A stretch of 62,435 bases of DNA, the filler included, from Hausera hauseri (lineage: Eukaryota): the NCBI GenBank assembly GCA_046269625.1. It is 10 parts of 10 records of this genome, joined end to end, with 100 filler letters (N's around TTAATTAATTAA, not from the genome) between each part and the next. Parts side by side here need not be neighbours in the genome. Positions count along the whole stretch, not along the records: positions 9,349 to 14,709 come from JBJURY010271397.1; positions 14,810 to 19,257 come from JBJURY010576005.1; 8 more parts are not named here. One strand, written 5' to 3'. The notes below the pieces were generated by a model. It saw nothing but the letters and a program-made list of their open reading frames with translations, was not told the DNA's origin and did not search any database. The position numbers and the translations under genes are program-made. The number at the start of each line of letters is the position of its first letter. The first letter of the stretch is position 1. This document shows positions 514 through 58,857 of the stretch, in pieces.

Positions 514-3500
514 GTGAAATCTCATGTTCAGCCATTCTATAATTACAACAACTACTTTATAACTCCGCCCGTTGCAGCACAATTTTCTAATCACCAATTA
601 AATGTCCAAGGTTATTCTCCGTTTAATAAAGTCAGTTATGTTCGACCACCATATGAAAAAAGTGATAAAAACAAATTTGTATATTATCCATATCCCTATC
701 AAACCAGTCCATTCCGAGAATTTATCCCCGGAAATTATCAAAATCAACAGATTTATTATCGACCAGATTCACAAGTTATGCCGCCTGTTCCAAATCAAAA
801 CTATCAAATCTGCCAAAAAACCAAACGTTCAACAACCACTGAATCCATTCCCGTTGATGATATGAATCGTTATTATAAAGATGGACAAAACTTCGGTAAT
901 TTCAAAGCACCGCAAAACAATTCATTTCATTATTTCGATCAAAATTCGTTTCGTAAGAAGCGACCAAACACTACAGAATCAACGAAAATAACACCGACGA
1001 AAAAACGCAAATTGGTCAATCAATCGTTTCCAACGACGAACAGTTTTGATGATCTTTACCAGAAATTGAAATCGGCAAATTACAATTCGCTGCTGATGAG
1101 TCCGACATTTTCTCAATCGCCAACTTTGTTGCCACCTCAGGGATTTATCGATTCCAAATCGAAATACAACGTGTCACGGAAATCGGTGAAATATCGAAAA
1201 TACAAATCGTCGGTATTTACATTTGTCAAATCAAACAAGTTCAGTGATGAGAAAGAATCGGATTTATATTTGAGGAATTATTTAGATGACAGTATTATTT
1301 CAAATCAGCAGTTGTTATCGAAACAAAATGTGGATTATGATGTATTTTCTGATATAATTTGTCCATCACCAGATAAAATGTTGTCAGATGATATTCTGTG
1401 CAATATTTCTTCGTCAAACAACAATGAGAACACAGTCACAAGTCATCCAGCCAGTCCTGAATTTATCAATCCTCCTGATACTCATTACAACACAAATGCC
1501 TTCCAATCTGATAATCATCACAATAAGCAAACACTGTTCATTGATTGTCAAACTGCAAATCCAATTCTACAGCGGAATATCGTCACACCAATTGTCGCAT
1601 ACACGGAAAATGAAACACGACTCATCACTGAAGTTCATCCAAGTAAAACAGAAGAACTCAACAATTCCTACATTCAGTTGTCCGGCAGTTTTCTCAAACG
1701 CACAAAAATCAACGGGAAATCATTTTCCAACATCCACATTGAAGAAGCCGTCAGTATCGCATCATTGACAGCATCAAAAAACCACAATTCCTGTCATCAT
1801 TGCTGTTCATTTCTCAGCGGCCTTACGTCAATACGGAAATGCGGTCGATCCATTGGATTAGAGACGACTGATGATTATTATTTCTGTAGTACGAGTTGTT
1901 TAACGAATTTCAAATTGAAATGTTCGTTTGATTGTGTGTCAGACAATGTGACAAATGGCACGAACAACAGCAACAACAACAGTCGATTGCAGACTACGCA
2001 AATACGAATCAAGAGTACTCCGTATAAACCACCGAAAAACTACAAGAAACTATGTGATTTTGAACAATACGTTCGTCGACGATTTCCCAGTGAAGGACAG
2101 AATGAAATAATGGCAAAGCCTGTCCAGATCACAGATTCAATCAACAAACGTCTTATAGGAATTAATTACAGTTATTATCGTGGTGATAAATTGTCCCCGC
2201 TGTGTCGAGATATCGATAAAGACGACGAGAATTATCTCTTGACGAAATATGCCTATTCATATCATGGACGAGATTTGTCAGACAAACGGCTGTGCGTGTT
2301 GTGCCAAAATATCGGTGATAATGATGAGAGTGTCTGTGGACGACTGGTCAATGTCGATGTTGACATGTGGGTACATTTGAATTGCGGTTTGTGGTGTTTT
2401 GAGGTATTTGAGACCGTCAGTGGATCTCTGATGGATGTTCAGTCGTCATTGCAGAAGGCATTGAAAACATGCTGTTCACATTGCAACACATTTGGTGCCG
2501 GGATTCAATGTTACCGTAGCAAATGCTCGTTCATTTACCACGTGCCTTGTGCCTACAAAATTGGATGCATTTTCTACACGGACAGAGGAATGTATTGTCC
2601 AAATCATGCAGTGCTCAATCACCCAATGCATTTGAAATCTCTGCGTGTTGATCGACGTGTTCTTGTTTATCGTGATGAAAGTGCACTTATTGCCCGTGTG
2701 GTGTCTGACGATCATGAATTGAAAATGAAATTCCGTACGGGATCATTGATCGTCAATTGTATCGGCCAACTGTTGCCGGAACAATTGACGAGTGGCCGAT
2801 TCAATTCCAGTTCGATTATCTATCCAGTTGGATATCACGTGACGAGGATTTATTGGTCACCGACACAATTAAATCATCGATGTAAATACGAATGTTTCAT
2901 TGAAGACGACGGGAATCTGCCTTTATTCGTTGTGAAATTTATCGACAACGGCTGTGAAGTGGTTTTTTCAGATCGATCTTGTGATAATTTGTGGAAAAGT
3001 ATTTTGACAAGAATTGCCGCACTGCGTGAAGATGCCGGATTGACGAGATTGTTCCCGCTGTATCTGTCCGGTGAACAGTTATTCGGTCTGACAGAGCCGC
3101 ACATTATTCGTGTAATTGAATCGTTGCCGGGTGTCGAGATGATCAAGAACTACGCCTTCAAATTTGGCAAAATGCAGCTCATCACCGAAATGCCTCTGGC
3201 AATCAATCCGACAGGATCTGCTAGGACAGAACCGAAATTACGAACGTACGTCCGCAGGGTACAGCCGGATGCGCCGTACAAATCATCGCAGTGCGGCGTG
3301 TTGAAGGCGAAAGCTAGTTGCCCTTACATTTACGAGCCTCTGCTCAGTCGAACTGCCATTATCAATTCGCGAACATTGCAGTACAAGAAAATAAAGTACG
3401 AATGGATGGACAACGTGATTTTGTCTCGATCGAAAATTCAAGGACTCGGTTTATTTGCTGCCCGGGATTTCGATAAATCATACATGATCATTGAGTATAT

Positions 3501-3837
3501 CGGTGAAATAATCCGCAATGAGGTGGGAAATAGACGGGAAATGATGTACCAGGCACGGAACAACAGTATCTACATGTTCAGATTGAATGATGATTTGATT
3601 ATTGATGCTACTGTACAAGGGGGACTGGCACGTTACATAAATCATTCGTGCAGTCCGAATTGCGTCGCCGAACTTCTGTCGTTGGATTGCGGCGATCGGA
3701 TTATCATCACAACGAAGCAGCGAATTGAAAAAGGTGAAGAACTGACGTACGATTACAAATTTGATTTCGAGGACAACAAATCAGATCGAATTCCATGTCT
3801 TTGCGGATCGGTAAATTGCCGTAAATGGATGAATTAG
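514..3837 (+). CDS. trr: Trithorax-related (Trr; KMT2C/D C-terminal-half type) H3K4 methyltransferase, uninterrupted ORF; true start uncertain (first ATG 778)
   Basis: Extended PHD (CVLC...WVHLNC...YHVPC..CPNH), FYRN (IYPVGY), FYRC (SGEQLFGL), Win motif GSARTEP, SET (GLGLFA, ARYINHSC, EELTYDY), post-SET ending CGSVNCRKWMN; AATAAA ~4085. Confidence 0.9.
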   Translation: MKSHVQPFYNYNNYFITPPVAAQFSNHQLNVQGYSPFNKVSYVRPPYEKSDKNKFVYYPYPYQTSPFREFIPGNYQNQQIYYRPDSQVMPPVPNQNYQICQKTKRSTTTESIPVDDMNRYYKDGQNFGNFKAPQNNSFHYFDQNSFRKKRPNTTESTKITPTKKRKLVNQSFPTTNSFDDLYQKLKSANYNSLLMSPTFSQSPTLLPPQGFIDSKSKYNVSRKSVKYRKYKSSVFTFVKSNKFSDEKESDLYLRNYLDDSIISNQQLLSKQNVDYDVFSDIICPSPDKMLSDDILCNISSSNNNENTVTSHPASPEFINPPDTHYNTNAFQSDNHHNKQTLFIDCQTANPILQRNIVTPIVAYTENETRLITEVHPSKTEELNNSYIQLSGSFLKRTKINGKSFSNIHIEEAVSIASLTASKNHNSCHHCCSFLSGLTSIRKCGRSIGLETTDDYYFCSTSCLTNFKLKCSFDCVSDNVTNGTNNSNNNSRLQTTQIRIKSTPYKPPKNYKKLCDFEQYVRRRFPSEGQNEIMAKPVQITDSINKRLIGINYSYYRGDKLSPLCRDIDKDDENYLLTKYAYSYHGRDLSDKRLCVLCQNIGDNDESVCGRLVNVDVDMWVHLNCGLWCFEVFETVSGSLMDVQSSLQKALKTCCSHCNTFGAGIQCYRSKCSFIYHVPCAYKIGCIFYTDRGMYCPNHAVLNHPMHLKSLRVDRRVLVYRDESALIARVVSDDHELKMKFRTGSLIVNCIGQLLPEQLTSGRFNSSSIIYPVGYHVTRIYWSPTQLNHRCKYECFIEDDGNLPLFVVKFIDNGCEVVFSDRSCDNLWKSILTRIAALREDAGLTRLFPLYLSGEQLFGLTEPHIIRVIESLPGVEMIKNYAFKFGKMQLITEMPLAINPTGSARTEPKLRTYVRRVQPDAPYKSSQCGVLKAKASCPYIYEPLLSRTAIINSRTLQYKKIKYEWMDNVILSRSKIQGLGLFAARDFDKSYMIIEYIGEIIRNEVGNRREMMYQARNNSIYMFRLNDDLIIDATVQGGLARYINHSCSPNCVAELLSLDCGDRIIITTKQRIEKGEELTYDYKFDFEDNKSDRIPCLCGSVNCRKWMN

Positions 3838-5079: not shown

Positions 5080-5344
5080 TGAAAACAAATGCAACAAAAT
5101 ATGTACAAATGTATGATAAAATACAATCAATCAACTTTTTCATTACAATATAAAGCGAAGCAAAAAATACAAGTCCAATAAGGAAATTAATCCGTTGTTG
5201 TTGTTGCCGTGTTCGTCTCATTTCAACTTTCATACGTTGTATGAATAGAGATTTGACAATTAATTCAATATATTCCCGTCGACTAATTATTTTGGTTTCT
5301 GCGAGATCACACAAAAACTGCACATCAAACACATGTCCAATCAA
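5080..5344 (-). CDS. Small ORF with C-terminal hydrophobic segment, divergent from pPolB; probable Maverick accessory gene
   Basis: Open ORF running into the contig end; position next to pPolB. Confidence 0.3.
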
Positions 5345-5496
5345 AATTCATCGGTCAATTTCTTAATCATGCTTTCAATGTACTGTTCCATGTGACTTTT
5401 AATTGTNNNNNNNNNNCCATATTTTAATTCATAGTATTTATAACTTAATATAAAACATTTATTTTGTTTTCCATTCAGAAGTGTAGTAATTATCCC

Positions 5497-8400
5497 ATGT
5501 ATTGCGTCTCGCGCATACATGTGGAGCAGGAGCAGTGCCATCAGCAGATGGCTAAATATTACAATGTTGGCACGGGCTCATATTTGTGCCCAACGTGTTG
5601 TAGTATTTTGTCCCTTGTCCATACCCCGAGTTTTATGCGATGCACAAGCATCATCTTGGCCCGTTTATGCGTGCAAAGAAGATGATGGTTGTGCATTGCC
5701 TCACATACCAGCAATACTGTAGTAGTATAGTGCATGACGTTGATGGTTGCCATAGTGTAATGGAGCAGTACTACGGCGCCACAACGGTGCACGGTATACG
5801 TGCCTACGTTTGTCCCGGTTGTTCGATAGTTGATGAAATTAACTATGAACAATTTTATAAGCAGTACAGTGTCCACTTGAACCAGTTTCAGCGGTCCAAA
5901 AAGGAAATAGTGATAGCGACAAAAAAGGTCAGTATCCTCTCAACAAGCAGAAAACGTAAGGCCTCAACAAGTCTTGACGAGTACATCCGAAACAGTACCT
6001 AACAGCAGCAGGTGCAATAGCAGGAACCTTGTTTTACTGTCAAGTACGATCTAAACATATCGTACGTGGACATGAAAGTAAACATGTTGGGGACAATACC
6101 ACTACAGCTGAGACATATTCCGTCCGGTGTGCGCAGCCGGTTAGAATTAGAGGTCGAGAAATTCAAACGCAACAACTGCAAGGTGCAATATTATGCACTT
6201 GTAGAATTTAAAAACTTTGAAGGTGACTGGAAGCAGTGCTACCTGTCACATCGAGCCGTACTATATTAGAAAGATTTTATTGCAGATGTAGGCGAAAAAT
6301 TGGATGAGAAATTCGCCAACAATAAAAAATGGGTAGTGGATGGCGAATTATAAGAACTGTCACACTCGGCTTTATCACAACAAAGTCGAGTGACGTGGTG
6401 TATTTGTCTGGACGGTCATTCATACCGACACATGCATATCCAAGCAGTCTCCGGCGGCAGGGAATGTATAAAATACCGACGACGAATACTGTTTTCTGTA
6501 CAGTATTTTGACCGTATTGAAGTACAGCGAAGTGAACAGATATCACGCAAATCGTCCAAATCAGTATGGGCAGTATTTTTCCAAATTGCAATTTGATGAA
6601 TACTGGATGCCGATGAAACTGAAAACCATTCCTGCCTTTGAACGGCGTAATCCTACTCTGGCAATTAACGTTTTCCCGTACAACACAATAATTGAAATAG
6701 CGGAAGACAAAGAAATTTATAATAATCGCCATGTGGACATAATTTATCGCAGTCGAAATCCGAATGGATGCTCGGTAAATATGTTGCTGTTGCAGCAGGC
6801 CAAAAAGTTTCATTACTCAGTAGTGACAAATCTGAATACGATGCAAATAGTGTCCTGTATGTCTGCATGGATGCAGGTTAAAAACAACATGGGAGAAACA
6901 TGTGATTCTGTTTAAACAAAATTCGTCAGGAACCACAATGTATGTTATGCCTATCTAACAGGAACTCAGGTTCACTCATTGGTCAAAAACAGACAGTCCG
7001 GCATATTTAGTATATGCCGATATAGAAGCTATCTTACCACGGCACAACATATGACCATAAACATGTTCCAATCGCCGTCGGTATGTTGGTTGTCCCAACA
7101 AAAGCCGCATATCAACCTCAATATTATGTTTTCCACGGATGGAATTGTGTACACAATTTCTTGCATCAGTTGCAAACCATAGTGGAAACTAAAATCGCAC
7201 CCTAGTACAGTAGAAATAGCAATAAACTCTTAATGTGGACAGATGAAGATGAACGCCTGGCGTTTGCAGTAACAGATAAATGTTACATGTGCCACAAAAT
7301 ATTGCCGTTTGACGCACTGAAACGGCTCGTATCGGATGACGATCATTTTACTATTCGATATCTCGGAGCAGTATGTAATTCATGCAATTTATCAAGGCGT
7401 GTGTGACCATTCTTACCGCCGATTTTTCATAATTTTCGAGATTATGATTGTCACCATATATTGAAATGGGCCACTAATGTATTTCCCCACTCGTAACTGT
7501 CAGTAATCCCAACAACAATGGAAAAATACCTGTCCCTGTCAGCACGCATAAACCGGTTCCAGGTACGCTTCCTCGACTCATTGCAATTTCTCAGTGAGTC
7601 TCTAGCAAAGTTCTTAAATACCTTGCCGGATGTGCCGGTAACATTGACGCAATTTCCCACACATATTGCCCGTAGAAAAGGCATATTTCCGCATGACTTT
7701 GCAACATCATATGAGAGACTCCGAACAGCAGAGGAACTACAGCCGCGATGGACAGGTAGAGCAGAGGATGAATATCGGAAAGCACAGAGCTGTTGGACAG
7801 AACTAGGCTTCAGAAACATGTTGGAGTACATACTTCAGTATCTGAAACTGGATGTGTACTTATTAGCCGATGTGTTTCGAGCTAAAGCGTTAGCTGAAGA
7901 GAGGCTGGAGCCGCTCAACTTTTATTCCATACAGGGAATGAGTTTGGCGTCAGCTCTAATGCCACTGGATTGAGACATTGAGCTGCTGCAAGATCTGGAA
8001 ATGTACCGGCTGTTTGATGTTGGTATTCAATGCACATTGCTCATGGATTAGTTGCGGTGCTGTTAAACAGAGAAGAAGTCGTTCTGAACCGGCCAAGTTA
8101 CATCGGACAAGTGGTATTGGACCTGAGAAAGTTGCGGATGTATCAGCTACAGTATCGCGACTTTGCACGTTACCGGCAAATGTTTGACGGCTGTGACATT
8201 AGTATAATTGCCGGTGACACAGATAGTTTTTTCCTGCGGCTGAAAAAAGTCAATCGCAAACAGCTACTACAGCAAATGCAGCCAGAAGAATTACTGGACA
8301 CGTTCAACTACCCACCAGATCATCCGTTTTACAGCAGCCCGATAACCGACAAAATCGGACGCTTCAAGGATGAAAGCGAAGGCCGGGTTCAGTATCGTGA

Positions 8401-8710
8401 ATGGATATTCCTACGCCCAAAGAGCTACAGTCTTCTGACGGACTGTGGACCGAAAATGCGAGCAAAAGGAGTCCAGCTGAAGCAAACGGAAATCGGCCAC
8501 AATGATTGCCACCGTATATATGAAGCAGCAGCAGCAGCAGCGGAAGGGGGCCAATCAGTGGCTGTTGTGTCTCAAGCTATCATCTGATCAATTGAGCACC
8601 AGCTGTAAACAATAAATGGTGCGAAAGTCGCTTTGTCATGTAACAGTGATAAGCGAAATTTGGTGGGGCGAAATAAGAGTTGGGCATATGAACATTGGCG
8701 GCTGAAATAA
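5497..8710 (+). pseudogene. Maverick/Polinton protein-primed DNA polymerase B, frameshifted, with internal deletion
   Basis: GSGW motif (6329), FERRNP..INV, EndoVII-like CxxC..DH..CxxCN (~7280-7395), FHNF..YD.H, RFLDSLQF, KGIFP, YLKLDVYLLADVF, RPSYIG..VLDL, GDTDS, FKDE, LRPKSYS, KGV, DKR; stop overlaps AATAAA. Confidence 0.9.
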
Positions 8711-9141
8711 ACGCACGTCAAAACAATCGGTGCTCTGTCGGTTCAGTTCAGTTCAGTTAGTGTGACAATCATTGATAATTATCCGATGTATATAGCTTTT
8801 TATATTTCAATAACGTATTTTATTCAGTGTCTTCTGTGTTTTATTTTCAGTTACTTACTTAACCTATTATTATGAAGTAAGATAGAAGTAAAAGTAAAAC
8901 AGTAACCTTGCACGAGAAAACAAAACTAAAATCACAAAAACATGCAAAGTAAGTCACTTAAATCATGGTAAAATTCCCCATTTTAAATATTGGGAATTTG
9001 ACGCCGCGACTTTCATTGTATCCTTTGAGCTCCAGTGTCAGGTAGCCTTTAGCTCCTTCCGGTGGCAAAACTGCTGCTGCTTCTCCGGCATGTGAACTGG
9101 CAATTTTCGCCATATTTCCTTTGAGAAAAATCGACGATGTA

Positions 9142-9248
9142 AGTAGTAGAAAAATGCCGGTCCTGGCTCACCCCCTCCAACAGCCAATCCGAAGCGTGCT
9201 TGATGCGCACACCCGCACGGCCGGATAGAATCAGCGACGTAGATTCTA
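9142..9248 (+). mobile_element. Left terminus of a (second) Maverick
   Basis: Starts AGTAGTAG; reverse complement GGGGG...CTACTACT resembles ends at 9551, 53738 and 61293; CCAAT box inside. Confidence 0.55.
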
Positions 9249-9348: not shown

Positions 9349-9551
9349 CAAATTCAAATTTTTACACGTACCTAAAATCCATACAGTACGCGTGCTTGTG
9401 TGTATCCACTTTCTGACTGTGTGTCGCCCATCTCCGCCCTATTAATTGTGCGTGCGTGTATCGTTTTTTCTACCCCATGACTCATCCGCGAACCAAACTT
9501 TTCCTTCCTTCCGCGGGGGGGTCTGATCTCATGCGCTCCTATCCTACTACT
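9349..9551 (+). mobile_element. Right terminus (TIR end) of a Maverick
   Basis: GGGGGGG-TCTGATCTCA-TGCGCTCC-TATC-CTACTACT; compare 61257-61293 GGGGGG-TTGGCTAAG-TGCGCTCC-CTTCTTT-CTACTAC. Confidence 0.6.
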
Positions 9552-9793
9552 GCTTCTCCCTCTTCTAGCGCATTTCCTTTATATTTCTCAAAGCCGTACC
9601 GCTATTAACTTTTGCTCAGCTCGTCACGCGCTATGTTTATTACTCGGTTCAAAGTCCATTGCTCGATTTCCTTTCCGGCCGGGGGGGGTCGTGAGAAAAT
9701 TTTAGTGAAATGTTCAGAATAGCCAATCAGATGGGGAAAACTGCTCGGCGGACCAATTAGAGCAGTGCGGCAGAACGCTCACTTCTACCTACT
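9552..9793 (+). mobile_element. Possible second, degenerate Maverick right end
   Basis: G8 run, two CCAAT boxes, ends CGCTCACTTCTACCTACT. Confidence 0.35.
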
Positions 9794-12700
9794 CCCCTGG
9801 CTCCACATCATTTTCTCCCTTCTTTTTTTTAAATGATAAGTATATTTACACAACTTCATCAACCCACGCAAACACTACAAATATCTACAACACCATCTCC
9901 ACTTTTCTTCGCTCATCCGACTTTTGTATCACGAATAACGGCTCTACAGTACCTGTCTTTGGGACTCTACAACCTTCTTCACCTTATATCCACCTCCATA
10001 TAACTTTCCGCATCCGTGGTTTCATGAATTTATCGCCAACCATAAACACCACGTATAAAGCCACCACAAAACCAAAGCCAGTTATACTAATCCAAAAACC
10101 CACTACCCCTACTCCTCCTAATAGCACTTCCACCCTTACTTCTTTTGCTCCGTTCCCTCACTGTACTGAATTCATTATTGACAACCAAAAATCCAGTAAA
10201 ACTTGGTTGCAATTCCACCGACTGTGACTACAAGAAAATAAGGTTACTAAAACACATCCTCCTGTTCTTGCTTCCTAATAATATGAAAACACGAATTCAC
10301 AACATACTTCAAATCTTCGAACTCCCTGATCCACATTTACAACTTTTCAACGCTGTCCTTAAGATCACAGAATCCTCAATGGACACTATCATACAACGCT
10401 TCTTCCACGACAATGCTGTAGGCGCACAACGACCATCAGAATTTTTACGTACTTCTTTGGCACATTTACACACTAGGCGTCACGAAAGAACACAATCCAG
10501 AACTACTTCGCCACTACTTCCTCAACGTGTTACCCATCCACATTCGGGCTGTACTTACCGTGGTGGAGGATTCCACGGCTCTTGAGAAACTGGCCCAATT
10601 AGCCGACAAGACGCACGACGTTCTACACTTAAACTCCCTACCAATCGTTTCGACGGCAGTTGCCGCTAACGGTATTCAAAGCAACAACACATCATTAGAG
10701 CAACAGATAAATCAGTTACTTGCCGAAAATATAGCACTACACGCAAAAATGAACAATATTAACAACAAATTAAATGAACTTTCCCTGTTCCGCCGAAGGG
10801 ATTTTGTCGCTCATAGCGCTCATTCTGTACTTAGAAACTGGTCACAGTCGCTTGCGCGGTCTTCTATCTGCTGTTATCACAGCAGATTTATTAAAAGTGT
10901 CAAAAATGCTGCATAAGGTGCAAATTTTATAATAAAAGTTTTTCTTCAGACACCGTTGTTTGTATCTACCACGCAAAGTTTAAAAATCAAGCCCGTAAAT
11001 GCATTCCAGCCTGCACTTTCAAAACAGATAAGAACGATGGATGTGCTACCTTTTCTTCTAATAGTCGTCTTAATTCATCTTTCCGAAAAACCTAAGATTG
11101 CCGCCAGAAGTCACGGAAAACTCTGGCGAAGGCACTGCTACCGCTGCTACAACGCAATCAATTAATTTCCTCATTGATACAGGTGTAGCGATTTCCTTAT
11201 TACCACAAACTTTTCCTGTACAAAATTTACCATTCAGAATTAAGTCTTTATACACCGCTTCAAGTCAAGCTCTGCACATTTCTGGTATGGCTAAACTATC
11301 TTTTGTCTTAACAAAATTTCCTTCACCTTTCCACTGGACGTTTACAGTTGCTAATGTCCAGACGGCAATTCTAGGGTCCGATTTTCTACCACATTATAAT
11401 TTATTAATTCATTGCGGTCAACTGTGTCTGAGGAGCAGCATCACTGGCAGCCTTACTGAGCATATAAATAGCATTTCGGCTACCGCGCAGTCGATCGAGA
11501 GGAAACCAAAAACTGATTCGAATTTCCGTAATATTTCATTTCGTCAATTTGTAAATAATAATTTTGATATTCAATCGAAGTTCGATGTTGTCAATTGTGG
11601 TACTATCACCAACGTTAATTTACTCCACGAAATCACTTAATCCAACATCATTTTCAATTCGACAATCCTGCAACAAATATTAATTGACCTTATGTCAGCA
11701 AACAATTCACAAATTGCATCCGCTACTACTCAAGCTGTTTCACCATCATCACTGAATCTCTCACAGTTACCTACAACTTTGCAGCAATTCGTCAACACAT
11801 CATGTCCACGCGTACTTAAGAAAGATTGTACGTTTACCCCTGCAAACAGTACTTTACGCCACATAGTTACACAGCATCAACGACCAATACGCCAGAGTAC
11901 GACAACTATCACCTCGTCGTAGACAGGCTGTAGAAGCTGAATTTCTAGAACTAGAACGCTCCGGCATCGTACGCCGTTCCAAATCTCCTTGGGCATCACC
12001 TTTACATGTTGTACAAAAAAGGAGGGCACTCTTAGACCATGTGGTAAGTGCCGACAGTTGAATAACTTGACTCTCATAGACGCGTACCTCCTGCCACTCA
12101 TCAAGGATATTTTGCATCGCCTTAATTTAACCGCAATTTATTCGACCATTGATTTGGCCAAAGCATATTATCAAATACCAGTTTTACCCAAAGACATAAA
12201 AAAGACTGCTGTCACTACTCATTTTGGTCTCTACGAATACCTGTTTATGCCATTTGGTTTGCGAAATGCCGCACAAACTTTTAGGCGACACACTGATTCA
12301 ATCCTCTCAGATTTCCCATTTGCGCACCCTTACATTAATGATATTCTGATCGTTTTGTCTTTAGCCAAGCAACACCAGGAACACCTCCACGCAATATTCC
12401 AACGCCTTAAACACCATAATTTTCAAGTCAGTTTTGACAAATGCCATTTCTTCAAAAAGCGCATCAACTTTTTAGGCCATGTTATTTCACCAGACGGCCA
12501 CTCTCCCCAACTAAACCGCGTTGAAGCCCTTAAGAATATTTAGTTACCACGTACAACCACTGAAATGCGCAGTTTCCTTGGTACACTACACTTTGTACAT
12601 AAATATGTACCATATTGTTCCGAACTGACAGCACCATTTGCACACTTAAGTGGCGGCAAAAAACATCAGCCAATTTAGTGGACACGTGCATTGGTTGAAA

Positions 12701-14531
12701 AGTTTGTTAAGCTACGCGAAGGGATTAAGACCGTCGAGATTCTCGCTTTCCCCAAGCCTGACGAGGAACTTATCCTTACTACAGACGCTTCAACCATTGC
12801 GGTAGGTGCTGTGCGTCATGAAATCCACTAAGGAGAAAATCAAGTGCTAGAATTTTTCTCTCGTAAGCTAACATCTCCTGAAACTAGATATTCAACGTTT
12901 GATCGAGAATTATTAGCCATCGTTCTTACTTTAAAGCATTTCTCCCACCTACTTGTCGCTCACCATTTTACCATACATGCCGATCACAAACCCTTACTTA
13001 ACATCATGGCTACGAAACATTCTTTCACACGCCAAGAACTACAGATATTATATTTGTCGACATTTAACTTCGACATGAAACATATCAATGGGATTAATAA
13101 TTTAGTTGTCAATTTTTATCTAGGTCGGTTAGTTCGATTAGTTTCTTACCAATCTTCACTCAAGCACAAATTCAACAGAACCAGCCACCTCAGGGAATAC
13201 TTAATTCTTTCAAGTCTTGCACAATTGTTAACGGTGTGGCTTTAGACACTTCCAAACCAGGTCATTCCGTAATAATTCTTGCACCATCGTTGCAAAAACA
13301 AACATTTAACAATGTACGTTCGCTACACCACCCCGGTGCGGAAGCCACTTTTCGTTTACTCCACCGACAAGTAATTTGGCCGACAATGCGTTCCGATGTG
13401 TAGATATTGGTTAAGGAGTGTGTGGCTTGCCAAAAATACAAAATAACTAAGCATTTAAAGCCACCACTGTTCCACTTTCCCTGCACATCGAGGTTCGAAT
13501 CCGTGCATATTGACATCGTCGGACCTCTTCCTCCAGACAACGGTCATCAATTCATTCTCACCATAATGGACAGTTCCTCACGATGGCCAGAAGCCATCCC
13601 TCTGCGGAGCACAAACACCGACACTATAGCAGACGTTTTTATTCGTACATGGATTAACAGGTTTGAATCACCTCGCTTCATCATCACGGACCAAAGTTCA
13701 CAATTTGAATCCAATTTGTTTAAATCCTTTGTTAACCGATTGGGGATCCATCACATACATACTGCGCCTTACCATCCCCAATCGAATGGCATTTTAGAAC
13801 GTATCCACCGAACATTGAAAACGTCACTAAGAGTCCTTAAAAAGTCCAATACTAGTTGGACGACTATTAGTTCGTTTGTTCTACTTGGCTGGCGGAACAC
13901 TCCGTCCACTTCTACGGGATGCTCACCTACTGAAGCCTTATTCGGAGCTCCTGCACGACCATTGTTCGAACTAACTGCCTTAGACGACACTCCTACAGAT
14001 TAAACAATACGGGCGTCACAAAATCACTTCGTCGAGGTCAGCAAAGATTTATTCTGCAGGATACTTCACAAAGACAAAACATATTTACCCGAAGACTTGT
14101 GTTTGGAAAAATTCGTATGGCTAAAAAATCAGACGCCGTGCGGTTTTAAGCCAAGGTATCTGAGGCCCTATAAACTGATACAGCTGCATTCACATAATGC
14201 TACTATTTCTAAAGACGGCAAAGAACTTACAGTACATATTACTAACTTATTGCCCGTCTTCTTTGTCGACGACACTTCACCAATCGAGACTTCAACCTAT
14301 TTTTTCACTCCTACACTTTCTGCTGTTCTTTTGTCTGTTGCTGTACCAGTTTCACCTCTTCCTTCTGCTCCTAGTTCTGCTTCATCATTTTCCATACCTT
14401 CTACATCTATTCCTATCTCTCTTCCTTTCTCTACCACTCGCTCTGTCTCATTTACTACTTCTACTTTTTGGCCTAACACAATTCCAATTTCTGCTTCAAT
14501 TTTAGTCTTTCCTCCTTCATTCACCTATTGA
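9794..14531 (+). mobile_element. Ty3/Gypsy LTR retrotransposon, degenerate (gag ~10145-10916, PR ~11160, RT ~11940-12540, RNase H ~12770-13120, IN ~13300-14270)
   Basis: QRPSEFLR, LAQLADK, FLIDTG, MPFGLRNAAQTF, LTTDAS, YSTFDRELLAI, H..H/CVAC Zn finger, VHIDIVGP, ITDQ, YHPQSNG..ER; order PR-RT-RH-IN; stops and frameshifts. Confidence 0.92.
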
Positions 14532-14970
14532 GCTCATAGTTGCTTTTGTGTTGTTCCGAAGTTATGAGATTAAAACAAACATATTAAATGAATTTGACAT
14601 AGAATATAATTTTACAATTTAAGATCGATAGCGGGTTACAAAATCACAAAAATAATGCTAAATTAAAAAACGACGTGCGACAAAATAAAGTTCCACTGGA
14701 TCTGATTTTNNNNNNNNNNNNNNNNNNNNNNNNNNNNNNNNNNNNNNNNNNNNTTAATTAATTAANNNNNNNNNNNNNNNNNNNNNNNNNNNNNNNNNNN
14801 NNNNNNNNNACCGCTGTGAATGGAATACGTTACGATAGTTCTGCAACAGTTTACACACAAAGTGTGTTTTACCACTTCCACTGGGTCCTACAATCTGGAA
14901 AATTGCGTTATTCTGAAGCAACAGCAGCTCCATATTGATGAATAAATACTTTTATTATATTTGTTTATAT

Positions 14971-14995
14971 TCACGTCATACACACATATAAATAG
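14971..14995 (+). promoter_or_regulatory. TATA-box promoter of the TBP-like gene (TCACGT + ACACATATAAATAG)
   Basis: TATAAATA ~30 nt before ATG 15020; the same 14-mer and a TCACGT occur at 61200-61220; upstream short ORF ends in TGAATAAA (14938-14946). Confidence 0.6.
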
Positions 14996-15019
14996 CTACA
15001 GCACAAACACTTTTCCATA

Positions 15020-15745
15020 ATGTTAGCTAATATCAACTACCGCGGACATGTTACTGACTGTAACATTAATACGTTACCTTTTAATCAATGGAAGCCGAGG
15101 CAGTATATTCACAAATGTCTACCGGATTTTACATGCATCATATTTCCATCGGGAAAGTGTCGTATCATGGGTTGTCGCAAGCCAATCACAACTGACAGCA
15201 ACAGTAGTATACAACTACCATTCGGAATAGTCATTGACCAAATCCAATCAATAACGGTAACGACTGAGTTAGACTTTCCTCATCAATCAATCAATCTGTA
15301 CAAATTAGCCATGGCCACTGAGTGTGTTTATGAGCCCGAACTCTTTCCTGCACTGAGACTGACATCGTTTCGACCACTCTGTGTCAATGTGTTTAGTAGT
15401 GGGAAAATCGTTGTACTCGGTATTCGAACAATAAACTATGAAACGATTATTAATGAAATTAAAAACCACATAAATGTTTTAATGCATCAAAATAATATAC
15501 TCTGCACAACAAACTATAAATATCAATCATCTGTTCATTCAGACATTACTACTACTACTGCAATGGAGCACAACAATGATGACAATACGATTCTGCTCAG
15601 TGATGATGATGATGATGTTGCCAATAACAAAAACAACAATGATGACAATACGATTCTGCTCAGTGATGATGGCAACAACAACAACAACAACAACGATGAT
15701 GATGACTATGACGACATCATCAACAACAAGCAACATGAGCAGTAG
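15020..15745 (+). CDS. Divergent intronless TATA-binding-protein-like protein with N/D-rich C-terminal extension
   Basis: Two TBP half-repeats: IIFPSGKCRIMG and INLYKLA...YEPELFPAL...VFSSGKIVVLG. Confidence 0.85.
   Translation: MLANINYRGHVTDCNINTLPFNQWKPRQYIHKCLPDFTCIIFPSGKCRIMGCRKPITTDSNSSIQLPFGIVIDQIQSITVTTELDFPHQSINLYKLAMATECVYEPELFPALRLTSFRPLCVNVFSSGKIVVLGIRTINYETIINEIKNHINVLMHQNNILCTTNYKYQSSVHSDITTTTAMEHNNDDNTILLSDDDDDVANNKNNNDDNTILLSDDGNNNNNNNDDDDYDDIINNKQHEQ
15571..15700 (+). repeat. 38-bp direct duplication (63-bp period) plus (GAT)n/(AAC)n microsatellites
   Basis: CAACAATGATGACAATACGATTCTGCTCAGTGATGATG at 15571 and 15634. Confidence 0.85.
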
Positions 15746-17151
15746 TAGCATGACATGTCGACAACAAAAACCTCTAACACCATCACAAAATGTTATGCCG
15801 CCGCCACCAATTGACAAACCCAAACAACAACAACAACAACAGCAACAGCATTACAGCACAAACATCCCGCCATTGACTCATCAATTCCCACAAATGAACA
15901 CCGCAAACACAGCACCATCAAGTCAATTACCATCACCCGCACACTCACGTAAAACACAACCGTCGACAAGTCATTCATTACGGTCACCATCACCAGCCAG
16001 TTCACGGTCACAGGCAGCATCATTTACCAACAGTCCAGCAGCAAATATGATGCGTCCAAATGTCCATGGTGGGTCATTACCCAGTGGAAATAATATTCGT
16101 GGAAATGTGCCGATGACAGGGAATATGCAATCGATGACGGCAAATAGCAATTTGATGAGTAATTAAAAATGCTGATAAAGATGACGTGTATTAATGGGCA
16201 TGATTTAGTTGACTACAGTAACATGAATAAGGTTCTCAGTGATTTGTTTATCAGTCAGGCACTTAGTGAGTTGATGACGATAAGTAATGCCGTGTGATGA
16301 TTTGTCGTGTAGATAACTACAAAGAGGAAATGCAGAAACATGAAATGCAGAAAATGTTCATGATGTCTGGGCTACCATCTCTGCCACCTGCTGCTGCAAT
16401 GAGACAAATGGCATGGCCACCCCCGCCGTCACCTCATGACCAACGTGACAGATTCCCCCTCGTACCGGCTGACTCATGGCTCAGTGCATTGCAGGCACAA
16501 GGGGCTACTGCCGGTGCTGCTGATATTTTCCAGACAGATTTGGCAGCATCACTTCTACGAATGTTCAGTCAGAATCAACCACAACAGAATCGACCGCGAT
16601 CAGCTGCCGGACTCAATTTGACTAGTGGAGGTCAATCAGGCAATCCACAACAGGACAAACCAGGATCAGGACGGGCGTCAGTGAATCATAGCAGTAGTGA
16701 TTATCAACGGGCAGCAGTGGTTGGTTTTGTCCATGGACTTTACGGTGGTGACGCAGCACAGGAACAGCAGCTGCTCACGGATGGACCAGAAATGGAAATG
16801 ATGCGGGCTATTCTCGATGGCCATGTCCATCCAAATGCACTGTTCAACATGATCAATTTCCCTAAACCAACAACAAATGCCGGTCTTCATTTAGAGCAGC
16901 AACAACCACCGGCAGCCCACAGCTTGGCAATGCCGAGTGCAGCCAATTTCCTTGGTCTACCGACACCGCCAATGCATCCTCAGTCCATTTTATCGCAACT
17001 ACAGAATCAGCCATCATCATCAGTCAAAGCACCGACTGCCGGTTACGGCAGCACCAGTTCCTCTGCAGCCGCAGTTGCCTCACAGTGTCCAAACGACATT
17101 TACCAGATAATAAAGTTGATGGCGTTGAACCAGCGTACGCCACCCAGGTAA
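15694..17151 (+). CDS. Two-exon Q/P/S-rich low-complexity protein (intron 16159-16312); start uncertain
   Basis: A|GTAATT donor and TGTAG|AT acceptor join ORFs 15576-16166 and 16294-17151 in frame (phase 1); stop overlaps AATAAA. Confidence 0.6.
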
Positions 17152-18173
17152 TAAACTGTACAGAAGGGTAGGCGCTCTGTTGTGACCGTCGCCATCGGAC
17201 TGACATAATAAATTTTGATTTTGTTTTGGTCTTCTGAATCGCCAAAAATTAATTTTAATTTCATGAGAGGTGGAGAATGGAAGGATTGCAAAATCTTACT
17301 TTGTATTAAAAATTCAATTTAATTTTTGCTTCAGAAAATTAGTTATCAATCTTTTTAACAATTGCTGTCTAACATCATACAATAAATTAAATTGATGAAT
17401 GAAATGCATTAAACAAATCACTAATTAAATGGTGAAGTTCATTTTCGTTACTAATTAGAAAAATTCACTTGCATTATTCATCAAAATTAATTCAGAGCAC
17501 TTGGTGATTTATTAATAAAAATTTATCAAGACATTAATCGGTGTAAACACATCGATGAGTTAATCAAAAAATATTTACCGGATTCCCGGGATACAAATTG
17601 ATATTTGGTCCATTGTTTTAATAAGTGGCTATTTACAAAATTGATGAAGGTCACTCGTACCATTTCTCACTGTTAGGGCTTGATTTGAAGTAGCGAATTT
17701 CTGTCAAAGAAATTTATTTTCCATATTATGGCTTGTTCTGTGAAATTCGTTCAAACGAATGAAAAAACTTATTAGGAAAATCAGGTTTGGTAACAATTTT
17801 GTCCTTTTATGCAATGAGTTTGGTTAAAGACGAAAGGAATCATCTGATGTTGCTAAAGAAGGCAATGAGTTGGATGACGCTTGTACTAAATCGAATCGAA
17901 AACCAAAGAAATCGAACATTGGCAGGAGGTTTAGTTTGTTTAAGTTGAGGTTGGCGATTTGGTTTTTGGTGGAGTTGGCGAAGTGTGATACTAGTTTCGT
18001 GGTTGCTGATGTAACAAATCTTGGTAATTTTTCGTGTTGATGGGCGTTTTGTAATTCAATACACATTTGAGTTTTTTGTGTGTATGGTGATTAATCGATA
18101 ATTGTTACACGAGCAAACACAATTTGTCATGACTGTTGTCCAACTCATAATTTCATACGTATTTATTGTCACA

Positions 18174-18814
18174 GTGACAGCAGTAGAGAGACTCATCAAA
18201 AGTTATTGCGTAATTCCATCGACGTTGCAGCATTGGTAATTTATCCACTTGATCATTGATTACTGTCATTACAGCAGCGTCCTACAACTGCAGCTGACTC
18301 ATCCATCCAGTCAGTCGATGGGTCATCATTAGTCGGTAATTCATCATTTACAGCTGACACAACGCCAACTGTGGATTTCCCTGCTGATTACGACGAGGAT
18401 GATTGCAGTATTACGCGATTGCATGACGACGATGTCATTGGACGAGACTGCTCTGCCGTCTGTAGCAGCCCATCTGCTATGATGGTGACTTTGCTACGGC
18501 AGTTGTTGATATATCCGGACCATTTCTGCATATGGCTGTCGTACGCAATGTAAATTTGATTCTCGAATTCCATTGTCAGATGTCGCTTATTTAGCACGGC
18601 ATTCCTCGTTCTGTCCACTGTCTACGTATCATTCCAGGTTGATAGACTCGAACAGACAGTGTTACGCGTCATCCGCAATGACAGACTCTATGGGATTGTG
18701 CCCGGCATGTCGGCGGATACTCTGACGGAATTTGGTCGGGCACGATTGATATTGACTGGGCAAATTGAACAAATGAGTCAATTGATGAAAGTTGTTAGGG
18801 AAAAATTATCGTAG
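18174..18814 (+). CDS. 3' exons of an unknown host gene (introns 18236-18274, 18485-18637)
   Basis: GT-AG introns restore one frame ending ...EQMSQLMKVVREKLS*; the 39-nt intron contains an in-frame stop. Confidence 0.55.
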
Positions 18815-19357
18815 TGTTGTGTGTCGTTTGTAATTTTTTGTTAATTTGTGTTTTTGGGGGGGGGGTAGGTATATGTATTGAGTTGATTTTTATTTTGTGT
18901 TATTTGCGTGTGATGAATATTGATAAGTTTGCGTTGTGCGTAGAGTGGAGGGTTGGCAAATATATTTGTTGATTTGATCCACTTGTATAATTCATACGCA
19001 TACACTATGCCATACCGTCGTGATGTATACCAATTGAAATAAATTCGGATAAAATTCTCAACAGAGAAATATCTTTTCATCAACCCACGCTAACAACTGG
19101 TCATTCTGTATTGGTGCGGTAAGTTGTAATCAATGCTTATTCATTTCTGATACTCAAATTGATACCAGGTAATATCGTCAATTTGAATAATAATTTGTCT
19201 CTTTCACAGTTATGACTCACTTTGTATCGTCGACAAGTTCGATGACTGACGAAAATTNNNNNNNNNNNNNNNNNNNNNNNNNNNNNNNNNNNNNNNNNNN
19301 NTTAATTAATTAANNNNNNNNNNNNNNNNNNNNNNNNNNNNNNNNNNNNNNNNNNNN

Positions 19358-46070: not shown

Positions 46071-49000
46071 GATTATTGTATAGCATTATATTATAAAACG
46101 AGTAACACTGAAAGACAAAGCAAGAAACCTTACAGAAATAACTATGATTAAATAACATTCTATTTGTGTTTGACAGGAGCGGCTGGAAACCTCGGTGGTA
46201 AGTTCGAAATAATACATCATGCCATTCTTGTATACGAAAATATTGAAATTAAATCTGAATGTGTTGAGCTTTATCTTTGTTTTAGAGAGTTGACATATTG
46301 GTGTATTTATTTTATTCTTTATTTTATAGCGATGACAAATTAGTGTATTCAAGTTTAATCTTTGTTTTCAGGTTCTGCTCTTGGGTGTGTTTTTTTTAAC
46401 CGCCAGTATCAGTTGTTGTAAACCTTCAGCGATATTTGAAAGCAGAACTGTATCATCTGCGTATTGGAGTTCCGGCACGGTGTTACCACCTATTGTGAAA
46501 GGACCATAGTTTGCTCCTTTTTATCGTCTCTGACATTTCTAATTATATTCACGGCATAGATGTTGAACAGATATAAGTAGAGTGTACATCCTTGTCGTAC
46601 TCCTTTTAGTTTCTCGAACCATTCAGATGTTTCTCCCGATATTCTTGCAAATGCTTGTCGTTCTTGATATTCCATGTCTCTCATGATATTTCATACGTTG
46701 TTTTGCTGTACACAGTCAAAAGCCTTGGTGTAATCAATGAAACAAGTATGAAGGTCTTCGTTGTACTCTCTGCACTTCTAAAAGATGTTTATCATTTTGA
46801 AGATAAGGTCTATCGTGCCGCGTCTGCCTTGTCGGAAACCAGCTTGCACTTGTTGTATTTCTTCTGATTTCATTTTCATTATTTTCATGATGACATGTAA
46901 GAGGATTTTGCTGGTATGACTTATTAGATGTATGGTGCGGTGTTAAGATACACAGTTTTAGAATATCATTCTTTGGTTTGGGAACGTATCCTGATTTTTC
47001 CATGCCTCGGACCAGTCAGTACTGTTCCAGATATTTATACATAGTGCGTGATACATTCTGGCGCTGCCTTTTTCGCCTGCTTGAATTTATTCAGCTCATA
47101 TGTTTATCACACCTTGGTGATTTCCCTTTTTAATTCTATTTATTGCCGAGATCACTTCTAAAAACGGTTCTTGCTCTTTATCATCGTCTTTCATTACTGC
47201 TTCTTTACTGTTTTATGTCTGTATTTTTTCCTGTAGTATTCTTTTCATCTTGCTAGAATGTCCTTGATTTCTGTTAGTGTCTTCACGTCTTTATCATCTA
47301 TTACCTATAGATTTGGTTTTGGTTTAATAACTATTGCTAGTGCTTTAAATTCTCTGAACATTTTTCCATTTTTTTCCTTTTTTTTTTGAAGATCTTCTAT
47401 TTTGTTTGATGCGTTTGTTATGTATTGTTTTTTGTCTTTCCTGTTTTCTCTTCTGTTTTTTTCTGGTACACATTCTATAGTTGTCTCTGTTCCATTTCGT
47501 CCCCTCCCGCTTCAATCTTATTCTCTCTTCTATGAGATTCAGTGTTTCGTTTGTGATGTAGTTCTGTTTCTTCTGAGTTTTTTTTGGAAGCATTTGTGTG
47601 ATGTGGAAATAAAAACCAACCAAGATCAAGCTGTATAAGAGCAATGCTCTTAGCACCCTTCTCCAAGGTTCAGAATGTTGGAAAATGACAATCACCATAG
47701 AAAGAAAACTTGAGGTGTTCCGAACTAAATGCCTACGTAGGATTATGACGATATTCTGGCCAAAGGTCATTTCAACGACAGTCTCAGACAAAAAGCAGGG
47801 GTGACCACCATTTCAGAGATCACCGGAGAACGCAGATGGAGATGGCTGGGCCATGTGTTTAGAATGTCAGCCGGTTCACTGCCTAGAAACGCTATCCAAT
47901 GGACACCCCAAGGAAAGATAATCCCTGGAAGACCCAAGGAGAAATGGCGAAGGACAGTGGAAAATGATTTGGAAAACACAGGTCTAACTTTTCAGACGGC
48001 TGCAAAAACAGAGAAAAACAGACAGAAGTGGAAAGCCCTCAACATTGCCTCAAGTATCAGGCGGTACACGAGAATTGAGTCAGTGAGTGAGTGAGATGAA
48101 GAGCTCTCTTGCTTGTGGCTAAGTAATCAGGTGTCATGACTTCTTGTATTGCCATTAGAATTTCGAATTTGTTTTGGACTTCGATGTTGTTNNNNNNNNN
48201 NNNNNNNNNNNNNNNNNNNNNNNNNNNNNNNNNNNTTAATTAATTAANNNNNNNNNNNNNNNNNNNNNNNNNNNNNNNNNNNNNNNNNNNNGATCGCACA
48301 CAGGACCTTCTTGCTCTGATGTGACGTTGTCCAAAAGGGGTGTGAAATAATCCCGAAAACACAGCACAAGGTCCACAAGTTTATAGAGTACCGCATACAA
48401 TGTAAAACCTGTAAAAAAATAATATTTAAATTGGTGTAATGCTTGACTGTGGAGAATGGCCATATTTCATTCAGAACCATATTCCTCATACATGAACTAC
48501 AGAAACACTTCTTTCACTTTCTTAATAAATTAGAACTGTTCAGCAACACCTAGATGCACTTCTTTTTCTCACCATGGACATTGGTTGTGTTTAAAAACCT
48601 ACTGCACGTTCTACATAGACAGAGTTTGATGTCATCCAATGAGCGCTCCTAAGAAAAAGGATGTTTGAAATCCTAGATGCCTTAAAATGCTGCCTAGTAA
48701 GGTACCTTAACTTTGACTGTATAGACGGATCTGATGGCAGCCACAGTATTCAATTCTATTTCTTTTCTCCAAGAAAAAAACACAAACATGTCAAATATAA
48801 CGAATGTCGAGCAACCAACATATTTATTAGACCAGCAATAGAGCGCAGTGTTTGGATTCTTCACTCAGTGTCTTTGAGCTATACGTTTGGGAGGAAGAGC
48901 CCTTCAGAACTCAAGTGCACATGGTAAAAAACTCATAGATGTGTTTGAACACATTATGAGCTGCCCTTGGTGTCTTACTAGTAAGGGTTTTATTACTAAG

Positions 49001-49200
49001 CGAACACAATCAGCACCGTGCCATTCAAACCTTTACGAGTCTCCCTGCATGTACTGAAAACGTTTACAATTGTAAATAAATTTCAAGACTAGTGTATGTC
49101 ACCAAGTAACAAAATGTTACTAAATAAAAAACGGCCAAAATATATTACAATAAGATAAACTCTTAGACTGGCATAAAATGTTTACAACCATTCATCAAAA

Positions 49201-49749
49201 TTAACGAGTTTTTTGGAACGATGCTTTTCTCATTTCATGTAATTTCTTTTCACTGCTATCAACTGCTTTAATATTGGGAGGTTGCACTGAAAGCCGTCGT
49301 TGAATTCTGAGTTCTAGTTTCGATTTACAACGTTCATTAAGACTGGGTTTTATTGGCATAGGAATTCGTGATGCAAGAGCAGAACTAGATCTGTGTGATA
49401 TATTATTTTTATCGTAGTCACGAGAAATTTCAGCATAACTCAACTCACAAACTTCCTTATCACTAGAATTTAGAAAATTATCCATATCAACATCAACATT
49501 GGAATTCTCTTTTAAATTACTGTTTCGTTGACTACTCTCGTGTTTCTTTTGTAAATTTACCAAATAATCTCTAAATTCCACCTTCGAATTTTTTGGGTAA
49601 TAGTGATTGAGTCATTATCGAATCGTTAAGCACTTGATCAATTTGAGCTAGCGTGACGTAGTCATCATCTTCAGGACCAACTTGTGGTTTTGGATTGATT
49701 TGATGTTTTCGAACAGCCGAATTGTCGCTGAGAGGAATGTTAATTTTAT
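49201..49749 (-). pseudogene. Host-like hydrophilic ORF with one frameshift (~49585)
   Basis: Open frames 49749-49585 and 49581-49201; no recognisable domain. Confidence 0.35.
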
Positions 49750-49979
49750 CTGTATTAGTCTACCACTTTCCCCCCGACACACCACATTAAATATCTCCAC
49801 ACAAAAAAATGAAATTTGTCAAGATAAAATTTGATGACCGACTTAATTAGTATTTGTGGAACGAGTTGCAGCAAATTGACGCATTACGTACTTTGCAATG
49901 GTGCGTGTCATTTTCTAACAAGGGAAATTTATTTTCAGATACAGAATTTGTCAGGAAAACTAATTAGTAAATCGAGTGG

Positions 49980-50095
49980 TGATTCTTTTGTACAATTCTC
50001 TTTACTACACAATCGACGCCACTGTTTTCCGTTGAACTTTTTACGAGCTCCAATTGGAATTTTAACGTCACCCTTTCGGCAACATTTTTGTGCAG
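49980..50095 (-). pseudogene. cic: Fragment of the Capicua (CIC long isoform) N-terminal conserved region
   Basis: [33 protein letters not shown] matches the CIC motif [27 protein letters not shown]; similarity stops abruptly. Confidence 0.8.
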
Positions 50096-50164
50096 ATATT
50101 CCACAACCGAGAGATCTGATGGAACAACTGGTACTGTGGTGGTCCCCGAGTCCGCGGCACCACA

Positions 50165-57900: not shown

Positions 57901-58129
57901 TCGAATAATGTATGCTTGACCGAATAGTATCGAATATTTTNNNNNNNNNNNNNNNNNNNNNNNNNNNNNNNNNNNNNNNNNNNNTTAATTAATTAANNNN
58001 NNNNNNNNNNNNNNNNNNNNNNNNNNNNNNNNNNNNNNNNTTGGTATAGGAAAGCGTGTCATACGCAGATAAATCACAAAGAACAGATTACTGATGAAAT
58101 CTAAACAAGAAGACACATGTACACTGCTT

Positions 58130-58857
58130 AAGGTGGATTCCAGCAGAGGAAAGAGGAAGGGCGCGAACTAGATAGAGAACAGATACAGTTAGGAAAGTCC
58201 TGGAGTGACCTTGGCTGCACTGGACAGATCTGGCTGGTCCATGATGCTTTATACTTCAAGATGAACTAGGAGGTGAAGAAGAACTTTTCCTGTACGCCTC
58301 GATGAATGAAGAATAACTGTACATTATATGAACTGTATACAAAACAGGAAAAAACACCATTCCAAAGAAAAAATATGAAAAAAAAACATATTGTGCAAGT
58401 CAGATCTCTCACTGCAGTGAACAAGAGAGCCGTGCAGTATCATATAAAACCCATACTCCTATGTGATTGCAAATCTTGGACATTGAGTAAACAATTGGAA
58501 AATTCTTTGAAAGGAACAGAGATGTAGTTTCTCAGAAGAATGCCGAAAATCCCATATACGGTAGTTTGAACAAATAAAGATATTGTCCACGAAGCAGATG
58601 CAGAAAGAAGGCTTATCGCTAAGTTAAAATATAGACAAGAATGTTTTGGAAAGAGACGTTCCGGAGAACTTAGCCACCACAGGCAAAATACCAAGAGATA
58701 GAAGTAGTGCATACAGAAAAAGAAGCGTCTAGATGATCTGCATGAATGGCTCGGAGGACATTTACCATTAGATGTGACTGGGGGCATCAGAAATCGCAAA
58801 ACACGGAGATCCGTCCCTACGGCTTACGCTGCACAGCTAGGCACCTGATGATGATGA
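58130..58857 (+). mobile_element. Two degenerate LINE 3' fragments; the second ends in a (TGA)n tail
   Basis: PILL..CKSWTL...L...EM*FLRRM.KI.Y...TN; TGATGATGATGA at 58846-58857. Confidence 0.7.

Follow-up and report, generated by a model that had tools for sequence, protein, structure and literature searches.

Does a Maverick-like element in the genome of Hausera hauseri carry a TBP of its own, and if so, which promoters would that protein read? The question was raised by an intronless TBP-like gene within the stretch of 62,435 nucleotides analysed here (the window), for which the original prediction had proposed a Maverick origin and a basal transcription factor acting on an element-specific motif. 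It bears on a long-standing problem, namely whether the Mavericks of animals are active as viruses and what sets the timing of their capsid production.

The window consists of ten unplaced contigs joined via N-TTAATTAATTAA-N linkers. Because positions 14810-19257 and 58041-62435 come from separate contigs, they are not linked, and for the same reason no linkage follows from the presence of Maverick pieces at 5080-9248 and 58041-62435 in the window. The evidence first offered for a Maverick origin therefore falls away. It consisted of a promoter motif at 14971-14995 that recurs in a Maverick end at 61200-61220. Both occurrences exist, with 0 expected by shuffling, but the words ACACATATAAATAG and CAATCACGTTAC are found in 0 of 9 sibling ends of this second Maverick family and the contig is unlinked, arguing that the match is due to chance and that no promoter is shared. 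The TCACGT portion of the motif was likewise rejected as a conserved element, since CACGT occurs in only 5 of 63 regions upstream of the TBP-like gene. A plus-strand ORF upstream of that gene, with a stop codon overlapping AATAAA, proved to be the antisense shadow of a minus-strand packaging ATPase gene that starts at 14933. The features that did stand, together with those found subsequently, are collected in Table 1.

Table 1. Features of the window that bear on the TBP-like gene and on the second Maverick family (positions count along the window)
Feature	Position	Strand	Remarks
Packaging ATPase (A32/IVa2-type), N-terminal 41 codons	14811-14933	-	Walker A GPSGSGKT; contig end interrupts gene
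TATAAAC box, candidate target of the element TBP	14963-14969	-	36 nt before ATPase ATG
Canonical TATA box TATAAATAG of the TBP-like gene	14987-14995	+	33 nt before ATG
TBP-like ORF, 241 aa, intronless	15020-15745	+	Saddle in residues 1-157, then acidic low-complexity tail
Downstream region with low-complexity ORFs 15576-16166 and 16297-17151	15576-19257	+	Single-copy, unlike sibling copies
Terminal region of second Maverick family	61060-61291		Siblings share 60950-61291, then diverge; ends ...TCTACT at 61291

The ORF encodes a protein with a TBP fold and no N-terminal extension, as originally predicted. Pfam PF00352 (TBP) matches it at 51.8 bits (cut-off 22.9; 7e-14), with the match confined to residues 74-138, that is, repeat 2 only. 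Residues 1-160 were modelled with AlphaFold2 from an alignment of 110 relatives; the model has a pLDDT of 94.4 and contains both saddle halves, so that the bipartite saddle of TBP is found in the predicted structure. The model aligns with human TBP over 147 residues (Z 13.0, rmsd 2.8) and with 38 TBP entries of the PDB at Z 11-13, the top non-TBP structure reaching 6.2; an ESM Atlas search with the protein returned TBP clusters only. The motifs YEPELFP, VFSSGK, IFPSGK and IQS named at the outset are all present, and the two losses claimed for repeat 1 were also confirmed. In place of its Phe stands a Pro that is invariant (P26 in 110 of 110 relatives), and helix H2 is absent from the model, where none lies between the strands at 46-52 and 70-83. 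Helix H1 is shortened and H2 missing in the subclade of the window; a second clade, whose elements have PLA2 genes, retains a short H2-like stretch, and the loss of H2 is therefore a subclade trait.

Individual residues were mapped by aligning 23 family rows on a canonical TBP. The yeast TBP numbering given here follows in part Table 1 of PMC12529657. Three of the canonical four intercalating Phe residues are kept, and the F99 position is Pro in all 21 rows that have a residue there. At the sequence level, the TFIIB-binding stirrup E-P/x-E-L-F is intact, with E186, E188, L189 and F190 in 23 of 23 rows, and F207 is equally conserved (23/23). The residues kept relative to canonical TBP are N69, F116, K120, G125, Q158, E186, E188, L189, F190, P191, F207 and K211. 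Seven changes on the DNA face are constant in the family (V71N, F99P, V122R, T124M, N159S/T, V161T and L205N), and the invariant new DNA-face residues are, in family numbering, N6, R48, M50, S77 and N123.

Linkage to Maverick genes is established by the sibling copies. Among 20 whole genome contigs with the TBP-like gene, chosen for length, 18 carry the ATPase and 4 the protein-primed polymerase (pPolB). The ATPase fragment in the window gives weak P-loop and Pox_A32 matches, and a full-length ATPase lies at the corresponding place on sibling contigs (Pox_A32, E 1e-4); in the window, the ATPase and TBP-like starts face each other head-to-head across an 86-nt gap. Three single contigs (L031, L133 and L182) hold TBP, ATPase, integrase, putative minor capsid and major capsid (MCP) genes together. 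One of them, L182, is among 14 contigs selected by MCP rather than TBP, most of the others stopping short of the TBP position. From metagenomes, 80 of 131 confirmed loci were fetched, 40 of them at least 2.5 kb long, and these 40 carry the ATPase (21), MCP (10) or pPolB (8). Across copies, pPolB is followed by opposite-strand cargo (RING, orphan and dUTPase genes) and TBP, and then by ATPase, a small ORF, integrase, minor capsid, MCP and protease.

Pfam identified these genes at TBP loci as pPolB (DNA_pol_B_2, 2e-21 on L117), a rve-chromo integrase (rve, 1.6e-14 on L117 and 1.2e-12 on L063; also found in the genome's own copies), a Pox_A32/IVa2 ATPase, an adenain-type protease (Peptidase_C5, 1.1e-7 on L084) and PLA2. 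The model of the MCP alignment A2 is a double jelly roll that matches the MCPs of iridovirus, PBCV-1 and mavirus (E 1e-15 to 1e-13), and the putative minor capsid (penton) gene, which has no Pfam match, is named from its position and conservation. Over 20 loci, distances between TBP proteins covary with those between ATPases (Mantel test without control for relatedness, rho 0.79, p 0.001). A search for terminal inverted repeats or a 6-bp target duplication found no pair; no contig examined spans both ends. Scans of viral contigs gave no match with the MCP and ATPase alignments, and with TBP they gave only a TBP of giant-virus type (on L051). Taken together, the linkage to ATPase, integrase, capsid and pPolB genes in many copies supports the conclusion that the TBP-like gene is conserved cargo of a Maverick/Polinton clade, and the original proposal of a Maverick-borne, divergent TBP is borne out on these new grounds.

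The cargo of the genome family (L042:4246-5973, L045:4101-5063) consists of a dUTPase, a RING-finger gene and a conserved orphan, C5, the last likewise preceded by the YATAAAC box described below. Related elements carry KilA-N/DUF3627 genes and LRR genes (L113, L117, L129; L081, L099), and a ubiquitin-conjugating-enzyme-like ORF adjoins a related element on L077. On L185 (contig C318939), a pair of inverted repeats of ~500 nt follows the MCP and protease genes, and past it the pPolB-side start sequence appears in the same orientation, which suggests head-to-tail copies.

The copy in the window differs from its siblings downstream of the TBP-like gene. Positions 15900-19257 have one match in the whole genome, and a tblastx comparison of the downstream region with other loci found nothing beyond 11 codons at the junction. 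The summed depth of a DNA run, which is not a copy number, is 1e5-4e5 across 14810-15554, falling to 9-15 for most of the remaining contig. Because the downstream part is single-copy and does not resemble the siblings' cargo, the window's TBP copy may have been truncated or may represent a rarer variant. The two ORFs in this region are Q/P/S/N-rich with no significant Pfam match, and could be private cargo (activator-like) or flanking DNA.

Elsewhere in the window, the broken pPolB at 5080-9248 is 60-78% identical to TBP-linked polymerases and probably belongs to the same family, while identity to these polymerases is only 35-61% for the pPolB at 59478-61040, which represents the second family. 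At 61291-62435, the Maverick end is abutted by the 3' portion of a broken MCP gene that matches a different set of contigs, which points to a nested insertion or a junction. A sibling terminal region (L202) abuts another pPolB. The other contigs include a probable mitochondrial genome (23913-39262; 15.35 kb, with ND4-, ND6- and COI-like genes by eye and its last 77 nt repeating the first), an uninterrupted ORF of 1,019 aa corresponding to the C-terminal part of trithorax/MLL (778-3837; PHD, FYRN, FYRC, SET), three tandem repeat units of ~2,541 nt (42200-48191), and degraded LTR-retrotransposon RT/integrase-like ORFs, also by eye (9349-14709 and 48292-53126). The mitochondrial-like and trithorax-type ORFs suggest that the genome is that of an animal.

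The regions upstream of these genes provide the clue to function. The prediction of a TATA box close to the ATG of the TBP-like gene was correct (Table 1), and either TATAAATA or TATAATA lies within the last 60 nt before the start in 54 of 63 genome copies; among 60 copies examined, 51 have TATAAATA, placed 34 nt before the ATG in 40. The motif ACACATATAAATAG, which had been proposed as element-specific, is thus this canonical TATA box, and is probably read by host TBP. Of the idea that the element encodes its own basal factor for a motif of its own, the divergent Maverick TBP stands and the motif named does not. The better candidate for an element-specific box is YATAAAC, which reads toward the ATPase on the opposite strand (14969-14963). 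TATAAAC occupies this place in 51 of 60 genome copies, and in the genome family the two boxes are arranged back-to-back within the 86-nt gap.

Metagenomic copies show the same division. YATAAAC was counted 25-60 nt before the ATG, with start codons assigned by the first-Met rule and near-duplicate upstream regions removed. It precedes the ATPase in 15 of 22 cases, PLA2 in 10 of 11, minor capsid in 7 of 11, MCP in 4 of 8, the small ORF after the ATPase in 6 of 9, C23 in 1 of 5, the protease in 0 of 5, the integrase in 3 of 12 and TBP in 0 of 46. Pooled, 43 of 71 packaging and virion genes have the box ~35 nt upstream and 28 lack it, versus 0 of 46 TBP genes. A canonical TATAWA[ATG] precedes 20 of these 46 TBP genes, the other 26 being without one in the interval scored. 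At 20 loci where both genes could be paired, the box is found at the ATPase and not at TBP in 14 and at neither in 6. An unbiased gene call on 23 loci placed YATAAAC before 59 of 185 genes in the sense orientation and 0 in antisense (shuffle mean 2.6), and the top upstream 6-mer found de novo is ATAAAC (64 observed, 5.4 expected). TATAAG precedes only 1 of the 71 packaging and virion genes. In the window's clade 30 of 40 sites read TATAAAC, and in the PLA2 clade (clade B) 20 of 37 read CATAAAC, two changes from canonical.

Canonical TBP is expected to bind YATAAAC poorly. Its C-terminal repeat makes the contacts with TFIIB and with the 5' half of the box, and its N-terminal repeat those with the 3' half. 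In the element protein the C-terminal repeat is the best conserved and the N-terminal repeat the most altered, and the non-canonical C of YATAAAC lies in the 3' half. We infer, with moderate confidence, that the element TBP is a late factor that reads YATAAAC before packaging and capsid genes by way of host TFIIB and RNA polymerase II. Early in the cycle, host TBP/TFIID would transcribe the TBP-like gene from its canonical TATA box. The small TBP would then bind YATAAAC by its re-tooled DNA face, carrying the seven changes listed above, and its YEPELFP stirrup would dock TFIIB. Because the stirrup is intact, the normal TFIIB route is expected, unlike that of herpesvirus vTBP. Regulators that bind H2 of TBP include TFIIA, TAF1, Mot1/BTAF1 and Brf1, and in the window's subclade the loss of H2 might free the protein from them. 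TBP and YATAAAC together would then form a minimal early-to-late switch, convergent with the herpesvirus vTBP/TATT system. Several observations count against the late-factor reading. The box is absent from 28 of the 71 packaging and virion genes, among them the protease (0/5) and half of the MCP genes (4/8), 26 of 46 TBP genes show no canonical TATA box in the interval scored, and one intercalating Phe is missing, while KSHV ORF24 needs all four. If the reading is correct, the element TBP is predicted to prefer YATAAAC over TATAAAAG and over scrambled DNA.

The genome also contains TFIIB- and BRF1-like sequences. An intronless, divergent but full-length TFIIB-like ORF of 302 aa lies at L173:994-1902, and exon-like TFIIB pieces occur on further contigs; a complex prediction of the TBP-like protein with the L173 core, run without alignments, scored 0.01, a value taken neither for nor against a contact. 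A GC-rich BRF1-like exon on L152 (contig C202075) is unlike the AT-rich BRF1-like gene on L153, which may point to DNA from a second organism in the assembly.

The alternative that survives best, which we nonetheless consider unlikely, is that host TBP reads both boxes and the element TBP is a decoy, sequestering TFIIB or other factors or blocking host promoters. Such a role would fit the invariance of the TFIIB stirrup in a protein that has lost one Phe and H2. Canonical TBP tolerates C-substituted TATA boxes: the titles of PDB entries 1qn3 and 1qna describe crystals of the wild-type protein on such variants, and host TBP may therefore suffice. However, a decoy would leave the invariant new DNA-face residues without a reason, as well as the avoidance of YATAAAC by the TBP gene itself, and the prevalence of CATAAAC in clade B also argues against a weak TATA box read by host TBP.

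It is more doubtful still that YATAAAC is a poly(A) or termination signal or a stop-codon context, with the TBP-like protein acting elsewhere, for example at canonical TATA boxes or at the termini. The minor poly(A) hexamers include TATAAA and CATAAA, 31 of 258 YATAAAC sites overlap the stop codon of the upstream gene, and the box is found at 16 of the 115 gene ends after which no gene was called. On the other hand, the box precedes the head-to-head ATPase in the 51 of 60 copies noted above, where no gene ends, and it lies upstream of 27 of 129 genes for which no gene on the same strand ends within 120 nt. The distance to the following ATG is the more tightly constrained, with a peak of 52 of the 258 sites at 30-39 nt before it, and 53 of 274 gene ends have an ordinary AATAAA. 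A promoter role fits YATAAAC best, and the box could also have a dual or poly(A) role.

The box might also be a late promoter read by the machinery of a helper virus or by another element protein, leaving the TBP-like gene with a separate role. Virophage late promoters mimic those of the helper virus, and several conserved orphan genes lie within the elements. The TBP-carrying elements have no known helper, and the box is both TATA-shaped and TATA-spaced in an element that itself carries a TBP, making a reader other than a TBP unlikely. In favour of the late-factor reading, YATAAAC was found before 0 of 112 genes in 14 pPolB elements from IMG/VR without a TBP match; since these controls are distant (pPolB 27-36% identical, no MCP-profile match, partial contigs), the box and the TBP gene may merely mark one clade.

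The copies and their descent bear on the remaining alternative and on whether the gene is functional. A genome search with the TBP-like protein gave 5,382 first-look candidates; the 150 that were scored are 73-87% identical to it, the window's self-match aside. Two homologue searches found 164 and 691 relatives beyond the H. hauseri genome. In a midpoint-rooted tree of 30 rows, from which the host TBP exon L193 was left out, the family forms a branch separate from plant, protist, archaeal and giant-virus TBPs with support of 100/99, and the tree check that had been proposed thus sets it apart from canonical and giant-virus TBPs alike; because of the midpoint rooting, no donor is claimed. Although 32 of 65 genome copies have in-frame stops, a host TBP/TRF paralogue or processed pseudogene, passively amplified, is refuted by the constant place of the gene among Maverick core genes in unrelated datasets, the split from canonical TBPs, the purifying selection on shared variants and the location of canonical host TBP exons on other contigs, and we regard it as extremely improbable. 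The finding named in advance as fatal, a single-copy host paralogue never linked to Maverick genes, is the opposite of what was seen.

Selection was assessed on the same 65 copies, which are the top protein matches, a choice that biases dN downwards. Singleton variants have a pN/pS of 0.98 (neutral), versus 0.33 for variants in at least 5 copies, and the median dN/dS between the window copy and the 64 others is 0.29; among 263 metagenomic pairs with dS 0.05-1.5 it is 0.41. The combination of neutral singletons and constrained recurrent variants therefore indicates selection during propagation and decay after insertion. The TBP-like gene is under purifying selection while elements propagate, and many of the genomic copies are now decaying.

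If the late-factor reading is true, the pairing of a dedicated TBP with a box of its own at packaging and capsid genes would speak for an autonomous late phase. We lean slightly towards the broader view that a widespread Maverick clade has the smallest known private late-transcription system, an altered-specificity TBP of ~150 residues acting on YATAAAC with host TFIIB and Pol II; these elements would then possess a true, helper-independent early-to-late viral programme. The vTBP strategy of herpesviruses would have been invented a second time, independently and by way of TFIIB, and the elements would supply a natural orthogonal TBP-promoter pair whose altered-specificity TBP could serve studies of TATA recognition. 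The read-out is simple, since a reporter with the 7-bp box and a single small protein are all that it requires. A search of the open-access literature turned up no report of a Maverick TBP paired with a cognate promoter or of such a mechanism; the "TATA" matches in PMC12220804 are in author names only.

Among known systems, the cellular TBP family (TBP/TRF and archaeal TBP) shares with the Maverick protein the two-repeat saddle and the acidic YEPELFP stirrup. The Maverick protein differs in its identity of ~23%, in the replacement of F99 by Pro, in its seven DNA-face changes and in its own branch of the tree. Many giant viruses have their own RNA polymerase. Giant-virus and mirusvirus TBPs (BFVD matches; available portion of PMC10132985) are alike in being a virus-borne TBP fold, but their genomes are large, and the giant-virus TBP on L051 groups with canonical TBPs. 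That IMG/VR contig, giant-virus or mirusvirus-like, encodes RNR, PolB and heliorhodopsin beside its canonical-type TBP, which has Asn at the L205 position as in the Maverick family.

The gene set is that of Mavericks/Polintons and adintoviruses as given in the accessible portion of PMC8502044: pPolB, rve integrase, A32/IVa2 ATPase, double jelly roll MCP and adenain, with PLA2, present in one clade here, also part of it. In that portion of the paper, Starrett et al. (2021) name TBP once, in a figure legend, and the word "promoter" is absent. A TBP in a pPolB-type element, of this or of another family, is therefore already annotated there in passing.

The closest functional parallel is the vTBP of beta- and gammaherpesviruses, which likewise is encoded by a virus, mimics TBP, has a polar DNA face and is matched by a non-canonical TATA-like box before virion genes; use of host Pol II, proposed for the Maverick TBP, would be a further likeness. 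According to the available portion of PMC12529657, the DNA face of KSHV ORF24 is polar, with changes that include V122N and L205S, and the protein reads TATTWAA. Its 752 aa comprise a Pol II-binding domain and all four Phe residues, which it needs; it lacks the acidic residues for TFIIB and depends on five partners. The Maverick protein, unlike ORF24 as described there, has a core of ~150 aa, keeps the TFIIB stirrup and has YATAAAC in place of the TATT late box. The two systems are likely to be convergent.
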